Source: Alphaproteobacteria bacterium (lineage in GTDB: Bacteria > Pseudomonadota > Alphaproteobacteria > SHVP01). From it: DNA of 64,000 nucleotides. The stretch is from the NCBI GenBank assembly GCA_038121105.1, contig JAYONB010000005.1, positions 130,274 to 194,273 on the forward strand. The letters are read 5' to 3'. Both the position numbers and the translations under genes were made by a program. Position 1 is the first letter of the stretch, and each line of letters begins with the position of its first letter. The notes beneath the pieces were generated by a model. It searched no databases. It saw only the letters and a program-made list of their open reading frames with translations, and had not been told where the DNA came from. Below, piece after piece: positions 39,322 through 45,352 of this stretch.

Positions 39322-40734
39322 CTAGTGGCGGTCCCGAGGGGGTGTATGGAGGGCGAAGGATTGGGTCTGATAGGTCCAGAAGTGCAGTTTTGGCGACCAG
39401 TGCGCGGCAGGAAGCCCAGCTTTGCGCCATAGGTGCTCGAGGAAAAGCGGACCATGCGGCACTTGTTGCCACACTTGCGGCAGGAAGGTTGCCCGCTTGT
39501 CGCCTTCGCGAACGATGAGGCCGTCGATACCAGGCCGCAAGGCCGCTAAGAGCGCCCCCTTACTTGCCGCGGCGATCGGCGTTGGCGCACTCAGGACTGA
39601 AACCTCCAGGGCGTTGATTTGTGCAAACTCTTCGGCATTCAGGGGCGGGAACCGGGGGTCGCGAAACGCCGCCGCGAAGGCGTTGTCCGCCACATCCACG
39701 ACGAGCGGTCGCTGCGCGGTAAGCGATCCGATGCACCCGCGCAGTCTGTTCTTGAGTTTCAAGGTGACGAACGACGCGCCAGGTTCTCCCAAGGGCGGGG
39801 CATAGCCGTCGGGATTGATGGATAGGGGATGACCGTTGGCGAGCCCGTGACGGATGGATTGCCCTGCAACGTGCAGAACGACCTCGCGCTCGCCGAGGGA
39901 CAGACCTTGTGTGCCCGAGTCCTGAAACCAGATCGACGCATATCCTACCACCCGATCCCTGTCGCCGGCGGTGTCGCCCGATGTTCGATGATCCAGCAAG
40001 TGTGCTTCCAGCCCCGCCGTCTTCGCAACTTCGATCAATCCTTTTATCGGCAACCGACCGCAAGCCCCTTCGTCGGAGATGCCGTCGGCATTGAGTTTCG
40101 TGATCGCCTCCAGCGTGTCGTGGTCGAGTCTTTTGGCGGATTCGTCGTCGAGGTAATGGCTGAGATCTGAACTGACCACCACGAGTGTTCCGGGTTCGGC
40201 TGTCATCACCCTGATGACGTCGGCAACTTGTTCTGGGGTTGCGGCGCCAACGATCAACGGGATCACCGTAAACGATTCAAGGCTGCGCTGCAGAAATGGA
40301 AGGTGCACTTCGATGCAATGCTCGGCTGCGTGGGCGTCATCGCGCACGGAGACACATTCCAGGGTGTCGAGCGCTGCAATCGCCTCGGTATCGACCGGCA
40401 CCATCCCCAGTGGCGTTCTAAACGTCGCCGCGCTAGGGGCGGCGATACCCTGGAAGGCAACACGATGAGCCGGACCGAGGATCAGCACGCGCTGGAACTC
40501 GGAGCGAAACCGGGCCAGGGGTTGGTAGGCGCGCGCTGCCGTTTGTCCTGAGTAGATGAACCCGGCATGCGGGGCGACGATCGCAAATGGCGCTCGGCCG
40601 GGAGGACGCTGGCGTGCGTTGCGCGCCTCATCCATCATGCTGGCGATCAATGCGTCCAACTCGCGCCGATCGGCCGGGTAGAAAAGGCCAGCGACGGCGG
40701 CGGGCCGGGAACGACGGGCGTTTAATTCGCTCAT
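39322..40734 (-). CDS. AmmeMemoRadiSam system fusion protein: N-terminal protein B (Memo1-like) + C-terminal protein A (AMMECR1 domain)
   Basis: 470 aa. The N-terminal part has the Memo signature (GLFYPAD...IVAPHAGFIYSG). The C-terminal part has the AMMECR1 signature (LRGCIGSL...FRDPRFPPL...ATFLPQVW). Confidence 0.8.
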   Translation of the reverse strand: MSELNARRSRPAAVAGLFYPADRRELDALIASMMDEARNARQRPPGRAPFAIVAPHAGFIYSGQTAARAYQPLARFRSEFQRVLILGPAHRVAFQGIAAPSAATFRTPLGMVPVDTEAIAALDTLECVSVRDDAHAAEHCIEVHLPFLQRSLESFTVIPLIVGAATPEQVADVIRVMTAEPGTLVVVSSDLSHYLDDESAKRLDHDTLEAITKLNADGISDEGACGRLPIKGLIEVAKTAGLEAHLLDHRTSGDTAGDRDRVVGYASIWFQDSGTQGLSLGEREVVLHVAGQSIRHGLANGHPLSINPDGYAPPLGEPGASFVTLKLKNRLRGCIGSLTAQRPLVVDVADNAFAAAFRDPRFPPLNAEEFAQINALEVSVLSAPTPIAAASKGALLAALRPGIDGLIVREGDKRATFLPQVWQQVPHGPLFLEHLWRKAGLPAAHWSPKLHFWTYQTQSFALHTPPRDRH

Positions 40735-40740
40735 TGCGTC

Positions 40741-40759
40741 ACCATCTTACTAAGATGGT
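40741..40759. promoter_or_regulatory. perfect 9-1-9 inverted repeat ACCATCTTA-c-TAAGATGGT in the 52-bp divergent intergenic region of the AmmeMemoRadiSam genes (candidate operator)
   Basis: Seen directly in the sequence. It lies 7 nt from the start of the minus-strand fusion gene and 28 nt upstream of the radical SAM ATG. Confidence 0.4.
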
Positions 40760-40786
40760 ATCTCGATAATACGGCGGGAGGAACGA

Positions 40787-41970
<1,184 letters not shown>

Positions 41971-41974
<4 letters not shown>

Positions 41975-42642
41975 CCGTCCGCGTTTCGCAAAGACCCTTG
42001 CCAAGCCGTTTGCCGGGCTTCTTGGCGCTGCCGATAGGCTGCTTTGACCGCCTCGCGTCTTAGTCGCGCGTCGAGAACGCGTTCGCCATGCCACAGGGAA
42101 TTCACTCGCTGCAAATATCGTTCGGATATTCCTGGGGTCGCCGAGTGATAGCGGCCGATCGCCCGGTTCCACGAATGTGTGGCGCGAAATAGATCCTTCA
42201 AAAAGGTCGCCGCATAGTCGGCGTTGGCAGCCGGATCGAAGGCTTCCGCAAGGCTTGAGAACGCATCGGGGTGGTAATGCAGATTGACCTGCATGCAGCC
42301 GACATCGATGTTGCGCACACCGCGGGCCTGTAACGTGCGGACCGCGGCAATCGCGGCTTTCTTGTCTGGGTAGTAGCGAGAGTCCGCACCGGACGTCACC
42401 GTCCAAGGCCAGGGGTAACTTCTGCGTTGGCCGGCGTGCCACCGCCCGCTTTCGGCCAAAGAGATGGCGGACAGCACGAGTTTGGGCAGCCGATGGCGTT
42501 TTTCGGCTTCGCGCGTTTGAGCCCGGCAAATCTGGCCGACTTCTGGCGCGAATGTGCTCTCGCTCGCAACCACAGGCGTGCCGGTGGCGAGCGCAAACCC
42601 AAGGACTGCAAGGAAAACTGGGATTAAGCGATGCGGCATCAT
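41971..42642 (-). CDS. lytic transglycosylase (SLT domain) family protein
   Basis: The start was set at the Met-Met at 42642 (MMPHRLIPVFLAVLGFALATG signal peptide) with GGAGA upstream. SLT core: LVLSAISLAESG...GCMQVNLHYH. There is a 4-nt convergent overlap with the radical SAM gene. Confidence 0.8.
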
Positions 42643-42852
42643 CGGATTCTCCGTGACGAGGTACGAAGAAAAATGCGAACCGCGTGCCAACTAAGCTATG
42701 TGGCTAAAATGCCACTAGTGTCGCAAATCTGCGGCAGTCCGGATTATTCGTTTGGGCCGTTTTACGAGTAGCCACTATATGTAGTGGTGCGGCATCGCAG
42801 TCTCATGCCTTCGATGCCGAATACCCTTTCTGGGTATTTCCTCCCTAAACTC

Positions 42853-42882
42853 GGGCCCTCCTGAAAAGGTGGGCCCCTTTTT
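42853..42882 (+). terminator. strong intrinsic terminator in plus orientation (GGGCCC-N12-GGGCCCC + TTTTT) with no plus-strand gene upstream
   Basis: The sequence is ctcGGGCCCtcctgaaaaggtGGGCCCCTTTTTcg. On the minus strand it also sits just after the FGase stop but lacks a U-tract there; only an A-tract precedes the stem. Confidence 0.5.
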
Positions 42883-42890
42883 CGTCACGG

Positions 42891-43802
42891 CTATTGCGCG
42901 GCATCGGCGTAAACCTGGGCCGGTGCACGAAGCAGGCTGGGGTCGACGGCATTCAACCCCGCCATCAAATCGGCGAGGTTATCGATCAAGGCCGCCATTT
43001 TGGGCGCCCGCGAAATTGTCGCCTCGTCCATGTAAAGCCCCCGATTGATCTCGATCTGCACGGCATGAATGCCGGCGCTGGGCCTACCGTAATTCTGGGT
43101 GACGAAACCGCCGGCATAGGGGTCGTTGCGCGCGACCGAATAGCCCAGATCGTTCAAGCGGCGTTCCAAGAGGTCGACAATGGCAGGATCACAACTCGTG
43201 CCGAAGCGGTCGCCCAGGACGAAATCGCAGCGCCGTCGCCCAGTGTCGCCTTCGACCGCCGAGCCCATCGAAGGCATCGAATGACAGTCCACCAAGACGA
43301 CGGCGCCGAACTGCGCGCGGGTGGCGACGAGGAGCTGCTTGATCATGGCGTGATAGGGGAAATAGAGCCGATCGATTCGCTGCTCTACTTCGCGAAAATC
43401 GAGCTTCTTGCGGTAGATTTCCGCCCCGTTGCTGACCACGCGCGCAATCGTGCCGAGGCCAACCGACACGCGGGCGGAGCGAGAATTGACGAAACTGGGC
43501 AGCGAGCCCTTGAACATCGTCGGGTCGAGCTCATAAGGTTGGCGGTTTGGGTCGAGATAGGCGCGCGGGAACCGGGCTCGTATCAGCGGCGCTCCAAGCC
43601 TAGGCGCATCTTGGAAGAGCTCGTGTACGAAACAATCCTCGGAGCGCCGAATCGCGGTGGCGTCGAGCCGCGATTGGGCCAGGAATTCGTCCGAATAGTC
43701 GTCGCCCGAATGCGGCGACGCGAACACAAACGGCAAGGTTTGTGGGTTCGGCTTTGTCAGCACATAAGCCTCGTTTTCGAGGCTTTCGGGAGGTGCAGTC
43801 AT
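42891..43802 (-). CDS. N-formylglutamate amidohydrolase (FGase) family protein
   Basis: 303 aa with an FGase-family N-terminal motif (PFVFASPHSGDDYSDEF) and a zinc-hydrolase-like fold signature. Confidence 0.8.
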   Translation of the reverse strand: MTAPPESLENEAYVLTKPNPQTLPFVFASPHSGDDYSDEFLAQSRLDATAIRRSEDCFVHELFQDAPRLGAPLIRARFPRAYLDPNRQPYELDPTMFKGSLPSFVNSRSARVSVGLGTIARVVSNGAEIYRKKLDFREVEQRIDRLYFPYHAMIKQLLVATRAQFGAVVLVDCHSMPSMGSAVEGDTGRRRCDFVLGDRFGTSCDPAIVDLLERRLNDLGYSVARNDPYAGGFVTQNYGRPSAGIHAVQIEINRGLYMDEATISRAPKMAALIDNLADLMAGLNAVDPSLLRAPAQVYADAAQ

Positions 43803-43907: not shown

Positions 43908-43982
43908 GGGCGCGTAGCTCAGTGGGAGAGCACTACGTTGACATCGTAGGGGTCGCTGGTTCAATCCCAGCCGCGCCCACCA
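43908..43982 (+). tRNA. tRNA-Val (anticodon GAC)
   Basis: GGGCGCGTAGCTCAGTGGGAGAGCACTACGTTGACATCGTAGGGGTCGCTGGTTCAATCCCAGCCGCGCCCACCA. Cloverleaf with 7-bp acceptor stem, anticodon loop TTGACAT, T-loop GGTTCAATCC and encoded CCA. Confidence 0.9.
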
Positions 43983-43991
43983 CGCTTCAAA

Positions 43992-45352
<1,361 letters not shown>

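Follow-up and report, generated by a model that had tools for sequence, protein, structure and literature searches.

The spacer between two minus-strand genes, an N-formylglutamate amidohydrolase (FGase) gene and an SLT-like gene, very probably (about 0.9) holds a plus-strand gene for an alpha-r8 (MmgR/SuhB-type) small RNA (sRNA), which would have its own sigma-70-type promoter and end at the intrinsic terminator at 42853-82. All positions are those of the window, the whole 64-kb stretch of DNA that was analysed. The sRNA is an ordinary member of a curated family in a canonical genomic context, and in that sense it was already known. The features of the spacer and its borders that bear on this assignment are listed below.

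41971-42642, minus strand: SLT-like gene (SLT domain, lytic transglycosylase-like; Pfam PF01464, 23.3 bits against a cut-off of 21.3), divergent from the sRNA
42700-42715: hairpin 1, GTGGC-taaaat-GCCAC
42771-42788: hairpin 2, GCCACTA-tatg-TAGTGGT, with six Watson-Crick pairs and one G-T
42790-42819, plus strand: fifth hairpin, a 5' stem-loop CGGCATCG-N14-CGATGCCG with arms CGGCAUCG / CGAUGCCG (8 bp), outside the Rfam model
42820-42838, plus strand: hairpin 3, AATACCC-tttct-GGGTATT, the 'weak hairpin' of the family, with a 4-bp core ACCC/GGGU at 42823-26 and 42832-35
42837-42846, plus strand: the single-stranded 10-mer UUUCCUCCCU, an anti-Shine-Dalgarno seed that contains CCUCCC
42853-42882, plus strand: hairpin 4, the rho-independent terminator, with a GGGCCC-N12-GGGCCC stem-loop at 42853-76 followed by C and U5 at 42878-82
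42891-43802, minus strand: FGase gene (Pfam PF05013, 261.9 bits), convergent with the sRNA

The four stem-loops described in the sequence-only reading (hairpins 1 to 4) are all present in the sequence (42400-43100 examined), and both flanking genes are on the minus strand, as it had stated. Hairpin 4 is also the plus-oriented terminator that it described, with a G+C-rich stem at 42853-76, a C, and TTTTT at 42878-82. On the minus strand, where a U-tract was said to be lacking, the hairpin is followed by GAGUUUAGGG, which holds three U only. The FGase stop codon lies 8 nt from the U-tract of the sRNA and 14 nt from the terminator stem. A PDB sequence search with the SLT-like protein (frame 41974-42642, minus strand) returned no match.

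Family identity of the sRNA

An Rfam search of the region, a check that the sequence-only reading had proposed for 42660-42890, did find the sRNA, although as a member of a known family and not as a new candidate. The matching family is RF00519 (suhB, 'Makes More Granules Regulator RNA, mmgR'); the hit spans plus-strand positions 42816-42891 and, at 53.8 bits, exceeds the gathering score of 41. It covers model positions 1-77 of 77, with E values of 6.7e-10 for the region and 2.9e-08 for the whole 64-kb window, in which it also passes the gathering threshold. RF00519 was the sole Rfam match in the region (Rfam release 15, clan competition), and the alignment covers hairpins 3 and 4, the linker UUUCCUCCCUAAACU between them, and the U-tract. 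With this match, the core idea of the sequence-only reading, a plus-strand sRNA that ends at the terminator and is antisense in orientation to both neighbours, is borne out.

We additionally built our own covariance model (CM R1) from 12 Rfam-confirmed homologues, with an Rfam-like structure supplied by hand; the structure given by RNAalifold on a MAFFT alignment was discarded, as its first hairpin was mis-drawn. The CM scored the window sRNA at 79.3 bits and found one alpha-r8 copy in the window. In the account of the family given in PMC12559287, alpha-r8 RNAs are characterized by a weak hairpin, an internal single-stranded 10-mer UUUCCUCCCU directly 3' of it, and a rho-independent terminator, and the same account, citing Lagares 2016, places one alpha-r8 copy next to the FGase gene in most alphaproteobacteria. 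All of these hallmarks, namely, the weak hairpin, the single-stranded UUUCCUCCCU, the rho-independent terminator, and the adjacency to FGase, are found at the locus. The 10-mer occurs as a single copy in the 64-kb window and is invariant in 12 of the 12 aligned homologues. It is unpaired from C42840 on in both the MFE and centroid folds, with U42837-U42838 paired in the extended stem of hairpin 3.

An alpha-r15/AbcR identity was rejected, as suhB was the sole clan winner, the window holds one copy, and the neighbours are FGase and the SLT-like gene. AbcR genes are arranged in tandem beside a LysR regulator gene (VtlR/LsrB) and not beside FGase. A small open reading frame within the RNA (24 codons from the GTG at 42787) was likewise rejected: it has no Shine-Dalgarno (SD) sequence, the hairpin varies by indels among homologues, and the 10-mer is invariant, including at the would-be third codon positions.

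Folded as a single RNA, 42691-42886 had a z score of -7.1 against shuffles. When the spacer was split by segment, 42787-42886 had a z score of -6.4, with 0 of 200 shuffles folding as well, compared to -1.7 for 42644-42786 (10 of 200), which places the folding signal in the 3' 100 nt. The minus strand of the spacer also folds well (z of -6.4).

Conservation and covariation in homologous loci

We fetched 80 loci with the FGase protein from species-representative genomes. The nearest record (L001) is an 'Alphaproteobacteria bacterium' metagenome-assembled genome (MAG) at 99%, either the source MAG itself or one almost identical to it, and the next two (L002 and L003) have 87% and 78% FGase protein identity. 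The remaining loci, with 51-62% protein identity, come from Rhodospirillales, Hyphomicrobiales, Stappiaceae, Acetobacteraceae, Parvibaculum, and others. Of the first 20 loci, 12 had an RF00519 hit at the gathering threshold, and FGase was on the other strand in every case. Our own CM detected 53 copies in 51 of the 80 loci, in addition to the window copy, and all of them were on the strand opposite FGase. The modelled 3' flank was at most 90 nt from the FGase stop codon in 31 of the 53 copies and overlapped the stop codon in five.

The structure of the RNA covaries among 52 distinct homologues. Standard pairs made up 91.8% of the cells, and double changes were seen in 12 of the 14 pairs. None of 500 shuffles reached any of the five covariation measures, and slid partners paired in only 28-61%. 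The weak hairpin (hairpin 3) had double changes at all 4 pairs across the 52 distinct homologues, while the terminator (hairpin 4) had compensatory changes in 8 of 10 pairs, with 93% of the cells paired. The sequence-only reading had made the conservation and covariation of its hairpins a test of the proposal, and the outcome is divided. Hairpins 3 and 4 covary, but hairpin 1 retains only TGTG-N10-CACT as an invariant part in L002 and L003, its stem being partly broken in L002, and hairpin 2, with a core that is intact in L001-L003, has lost 1 nt in the 3' arm in L002 and L003, which shortens its stem to 5 bp. Two further upstream stems (42720-35 and 42737-57) were rejected since neither L002 nor L003 keeps them.

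The sRNA stretch (42787-42882) is 98, 96, and 90% identical to L002, L003, and L022, respectively, compared to 78, 73, and 62% for the FGase coding sequence. The spacer upstream of the sRNA promoter is 80, 68, and 10% identical to the same loci. The RNA is thus under purifying selection, and together with the covariation, this indicates a functional, selected RNA gene.

The gene order is conserved as well. A tRNA-Val(GAC) gene at 43908-43982 on the plus strand is divergent from FGase, and a tRNA gene with the same position and orientation upstream of FGase was found in 17 of the 20 Rfam-scanned loci. Because this position is kept, the conserved block can be written as tRNA - FGase - alpha-r8 - (SLT-like). 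Of the 51 loci that carry mmgR, 19 have the SLT-like gene as the divergent neighbour of the sRNA; in total, the gene was found in 23 loci.

Several side observations were made on the gene neighbourhood. On the far side of the tRNA gene, 43992-45020 (minus strand) encodes an alpha/beta-hydrolase (PF00561, S33 aminopeptidase-like) that resembles proline iminopeptidase. Next to the SLT-like gene, the AmmeMemoRadiSam gene set occupies 39322-41974, with a Memo-AMMECR1 fusion (PF01875 and PF01871) on the minus strand and, divergent from it, a radical SAM protein (PF04055) on the plus strand; the set is kept in L002 and L003. Tandem alpha-r8 copies occur downstream of FGase in L057 (2177-2256 and 2434-2512) and L058 (2277-2349 and 2462-2535), from Beijerinckiaceae and Acetobacteraceae MAGs, and in L058 both copies have promoter regions of their own, which are similar. 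Another group of loci (L014, L015, L025, L027, L046, L052, L070, L075, and others) has the sRNA 550-680 nt past the FGase stop codon, and this gap of about 0.6 kb presumably corresponds to one small inserted gene. A few loci have a gap of 0.9-2 kb between the sRNA and FGase.

Extent of the transcript and control elements of the spacer

The full-length sRNA is probably about 94 nt long (about 42789-42882, plus strand) and, judged from the comparison of loci, would form three stem-loops. Its 3' end is the U-tract, and we infer the 5' end to within about 3 nt. The extension at the 5' end beyond the Rfam model is suggested by promoter homology and by a covarying leader hairpin. The following elements are involved.

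42674-42689, minus strand: candidate sigma-54 type -24/-12 promoter of the SLT-like gene, TGGCACGCGGTTCGCA, with 1 mismatch to TGGCAC-N5-TTGCW
42751-57, plus strand: putative weak -35 element, TTTGGG/TTGGGC, 17-18 nt upstream of the -10 box
42775-42780, plus strand: putative -10 box CTATAT, aligned with the (C)ATAT(A)T found before the GCGRCA anchor of homologues
42789-94, plus strand: GCGGCA, homologous to the GCGRCA anchor

The upstream region follows a common plan in most copies: CTTGAC or CTTGAT, a box TGCRNYGCR, (C)ATAT(A)T, a second box with GCGRCA at its end, a variable-length hairpin, and then the weak hairpin. The CTTGAC/CTTGAT element of homologues lies about 17 nt upstream of (C)ATAT(A)T, and the alphaproteobacterial sigma-70 consensus is said to have been given by MacLellan et al. 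in 2006 as CTTGAC-N17-CTATAT. In L002 and L003, the TTATTCGTTTGG block and 42770-42815 are conserved. At this locus, an E. coli-type promoter and terminator scan reported no promoter and missed the terminator, as its rules (a 3-8 nt loop and TATAAT) do not fit: an internal stem mismatch gives the terminator a nominal 12-nt loop, and alphaproteobacterial -10 boxes (CTATAT) fail the TATAAT test. A sigma-54 promoter in front of the sRNA (TGGTGC-N4-CGCA) was rejected, its spacing being off by one and the sequence not conserved.

The 5' hairpin (42790-42819), which is not among the hairpins of the sequence-only reading, was predicted in both the MFE and centroid folds. Within the clade, it has one compensatory change (L022, G-C to A-U) and two wobble changes (L002 and L003). 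For the family as a whole, the sRNA strand of the leader folds better than its complement, with means of -16.0 and -12.9 kcal/mol, respectively (Wilcoxon p=3e-4; mean z of -1.8). In 28 of the 44 distinct leaders, a hexamer directly preceding the weak hairpin pairs 6/6 with the anchor hexamer, with 17 arm combinations (for example, GCGGCA/UGCCGC, GCGACA/UGUCGC, GCGAUA/UAUUGC, and GUAGCA/UGCUAU) and a loop of 2 to about 30 nt. These covarying arms and the strand-biased folding indicate that the variable hairpin behaves as RNA. In the window itself, the 5' hairpin has no strand asymmetry (-15.3 versus -15.5 kcal/mol; z of -1.75). In Sinorhizobium meliloti, the PhaR site of mmgR ends 13 nt before the mapped start site (PMC12542648), and when this distance is transferred to the homologue L045, the start falls on the G/C of GCGAUA, the first base of the variable hairpin.

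The mmgR promoter of S. meliloti carries a PhaR/AniA operator, CAATTGTGCACCGCAGCATTA, with the core YGCRNYGCR, and binding of PhaR was demonstrated by electrophoretic mobility shift assay (PMC12542648). This core was not found on either strand in 42600-42900. PhaR core boxes are also absent in L001-L003 and L022, but one or two are present in 43 of 53 family promoters (background of 0.86 per kb). The sequence CTGCGGCAG at 42728-36 was rejected as a PhaR box because its spacing is wrong and it varies in L002 and L003. As the operator is absent, the regulation known for the family cannot simply be transferred to the window sRNA. Most alpha-r8 promoters (L014, L023, L026, L027, L045, L053, L060, L076, etc.) have two PhaR-like boxes TGCRNYGCR with core starts separated by about 21 nt, the first between the -35 and -10 elements and the second overlapping the inferred start site, and Stappiaceae have three; for S. 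meliloti mmgR, only one PhaR box is listed (PMC12542648).

In the window, the site of PhaR-like box 2 is occupied by hairpin 2, a palindrome with the conserved core CACTA-TATG-TAGTG that lies over the putative -10 box and start site and has one perfect match in the 64 kb. Since it straddles these elements and loses a 3'-arm base in relatives, hairpin 2 does not appear to be an RNA structure and is probably an operator at the DNA level. Hairpin 1 also lies outside the sRNA, upstream of the sRNA promoter and 11-26 bp upstream of the sigma-54 -24 element.

The divergent SLT-like gene has a candidate sigma-54 promoter of its own. The TGGCACGCGGTTCGCA element is the sole match to TGGCAC-N5-TTGCW with at most 1 mismatch in the 64-kb window, and as 1.6 such sites are expected by chance, it is the position and the conservation that carry the weight. 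A corresponding element (TGGCAC/T-N5-YYGC) precedes the approximate start of the orthologue by 28-71 nt in 15 of 23 loci (the window, L002, L003, L006, L015, L017, L020, L022, L032, L034, L036, L044, L049, L052, and L070), with GG and GC fixed and the spacer variable. Four of these orthologues (L032, L036, L044, and L049) keep the promoter with no sRNA adjacent to them. The comparison points to a promoter at 42674-42689 (minus strand) that is conserved across distant alphaproteobacteria. With GG at -25/-24, transcription of the SLT-like gene would start near 42663, giving a leader of about 21 nt with the SD sequence GGAG and no hairpin.

These elements bear on how much of the spacer is transcribed. 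A short sRNA of 77 nt that starts near 42809-42816, as in S. meliloti, would turn the repeat at 42790-42819 into an operator at the DNA level. This form agrees with the start of the Rfam model at 42816 and with the 77-nt length of S. meliloti MmgR (PMC8401924, PMC2573895); in the window, moreover, the repeat folds equally well on both strands, and its 5' arm overlaps the remnant of PhaR-like box 2. We nevertheless consider the 77-nt form rather unlikely. There is no -10-like element before 42809-16, the -35 and -10 boxes of homologues are positioned for a start at the GCGRCA anchor, and the 13-nt distance from S. meliloti (PMC12542648) lands on that anchor in L045. In addition, the arms covary in 17 combinations around a loop that ranges in length from 2 to about 30 nt, and wobble pairs favour the sRNA strand family-wide (p=3e-4). 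The sequence-only reading had instead proposed a novel sRNA of 150-190 nt that includes all four hairpins and starts between 42640 and 42700. That 42691-42886 folds well as one RNA (z of -7.1) would agree with such a length, but the fold signal comes from the 3' 100 nt, with the upstream 143 nt at a z of only -1.7. Hairpin 1 and the other upstream stems are lost in L002/L003, the arm of hairpin 2 is short by one base, and the upstream part is only 68-80% conserved, compared to 96-98% for the sRNA. The proposed promoter region is also at odds with the comparison, as homologous promoters map to 42751-80, and 42640-42700 holds the start codon and SD sequence of the SLT-like gene and its minus-strand sigma-54 promoter. 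We therefore regard the longer RNA as very improbable and estimate a length of about 94 nt (about 77-96 nt), roughly half of that proposed, containing only hairpins 3 and 4 and the 5' hairpin; hairpins 1 and 2 would be part of the promoter DNA.

Two other readings assign the hairpins to the flanking genes. As an alternative, the sequence-only reading had suggested a structured leader or attenuator of the SLT-like gene, which would be a minus-strand RNA; the gene is directly downstream in that direction, and the minus strand folds well (z of -6.4). However, a transcript that starts near 42663 from the sigma-54 element at 42674-89 has a 21-nt leader that contains none of the hairpins, and on this account the leader reading fails. 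The orthologues in L032, L036, L044, and L049 keep the same promoter with no sRNA beside them, and the wobble pairs of the structured elements speak for the plus strand, so that this reading is hardly tenable. It also appears most improbable that hairpin 4 is a terminator or 3' stabilizer of the convergent FGase mRNA and that the resemblance to an sRNA is incidental or that of a decaying relic. There are 14 nt, and no other terminator, between the FGase stop codon and the stem, and the sRNA abuts or overlaps this stop codon in many loci, but the T-tract is on the plus strand only, with UUU after the stem on the minus strand. Furthermore, the full CM match includes parts that do not belong to the terminator, and the RNA is nearly identical across relatives with proteins at 55-87% identity. 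The hairpin is the first structure met by the convergent FGase transcript, 14 nt after the stop codon, and it may also serve as a weak shared or bidirectional terminator for FGase, which is compatible with the sRNA reading.

The least ordinary aspect of the locus is its clade-specific promoter, which has no PhaR boxes and has a new palindrome. One speculative scenario is that the sRNA promoter of the window clade was rewired, with the two PhaR operators typical of the family replaced by the CACTA-N4-TAGTG palindrome CACTATATGTAGTG, and that one activator could switch on the SLT-like gene and shut off the sRNA. The centre of the palindrome lies upstream of the divergent sigma-54 start by about 117 bp, a spacing typical of enhancer-binding-protein sites. 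We consider this scenario unlikely. If it were true, a shared switch would couple cell-wall remodelling to the alpha-r8 regulon, which is not described for MmgR, SuhB, or SisA.

Proposed mode of action and comparison with known systems

In the preferred reading, the sRNA would be transcribed from the plus strand from its own sigma-70-type promoter with the -10 box CTATAT at 42775-80 and would end at the intrinsic terminator at 42853-82, giving a transcript of about 94 nt with three stem-loops. In this RNA, the middle hairpin and the terminator would flank UUUCCUCCCU and leave it single-stranded. By analogy with studied members of the family, the anti-Shine-Dalgarno sequence UUUCCUCCCU, together with Hfq, may pair with the ribosome-binding sites of target mRNAs and lower their translation. 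An Hfq-binding 3' module would be consistent with the U5 tail and with the A/U-rich UAAACU that precedes the terminator. The rest of the spacer would be a compact divergent control region, with the sRNA promoter and its palindrome on one side and the sigma-54 promoter of the SLT-like gene on the other.

The main value of this result is a correct annotation, as an unannotated spacer in an uncultured alphaproteobacterium holds the alpha-r8 riboregulator of its lineage. In studied species, alpha-r8 restrains the storage of PHB and shapes starvation and stress responses. In these species, alpha-r8 is described as tying carbon storage (PHB) and stress responses to nutrient status (PMC12559287, bioRxiv 10.64898/2025.12.09.693200, PMC8401924), and loss of the MmgR core in S. 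meliloti leads to more phasins and PHB (PMC8401924, PMC7143759). The by-products of the comparison may help those who work on the family. They are a covarying 5' hairpin outside the Rfam model, two PhaR-like boxes about 21 nt apart in most promoters and none in the window clade, and a conserved sigma-54 promoter on the divergent SLT-like neighbour. They leave the identity of the element unchanged.

Among known systems, MmgR of S. meliloti (Sm8/SmelC689) resembles the window sRNA in its weak hairpin, single-stranded UUUCCUCCCU, and rho-independent terminator. Like the window sRNA, it is encoded on the plus strand between two reverse-strand genes, and it was first found as an 'orphan terminator' (PMC2573895), by the same line of argument as in the sequence-only reading. 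However, MmgR is 77 nt long, whereas the window sRNA is probably about 94 nt, with a 30-nt 5' hairpin. The promoters differ as well: that of mmgR has a PhaR/AniA operator (PMC12542648) and is NtrC-responsive, while that of the window clade has no YGCRNYGCR and carries a CACTA-N4-TAGTG palindrome over the putative -10 box and start site.

SisA of Caulobacter crescentus is also an alpha-R8 RNA that lies downstream of FGase and has the same 10-mer. According to PMC12559287, this 10-mer is the pairing core, its action is Hfq-dependent, and SisA is titrated by the sponge RNA CrfA. Caulobacter has four paralogues (SisA-D) and the sponge CrfA, with SisA as the FGase-linked copy, in contrast to the single copy in the window. 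Another member of the family of the window sRNA, SuhB of Sphingopyxis granuli TFA, limits the accumulation of PHB and, together with Hfq, base-pairs with thnR and phbB at their Shine-Dalgarno regions (bioRxiv 10.64898/2025.12.09.693200). Activation by a LysR-type regulator through a T-N11-A site is a feature of SuhB. Finally, AbcR1 and AbcR2 (alpha-r15) combine a 5' hairpin with a suhB-like module made up of a second hairpin and the terminator (PMC3346310), an arrangement that resembles the three-hairpin RNA predicted here, but the 5' hairpin of the window sRNA carries no anti-Shine-Dalgarno loop.
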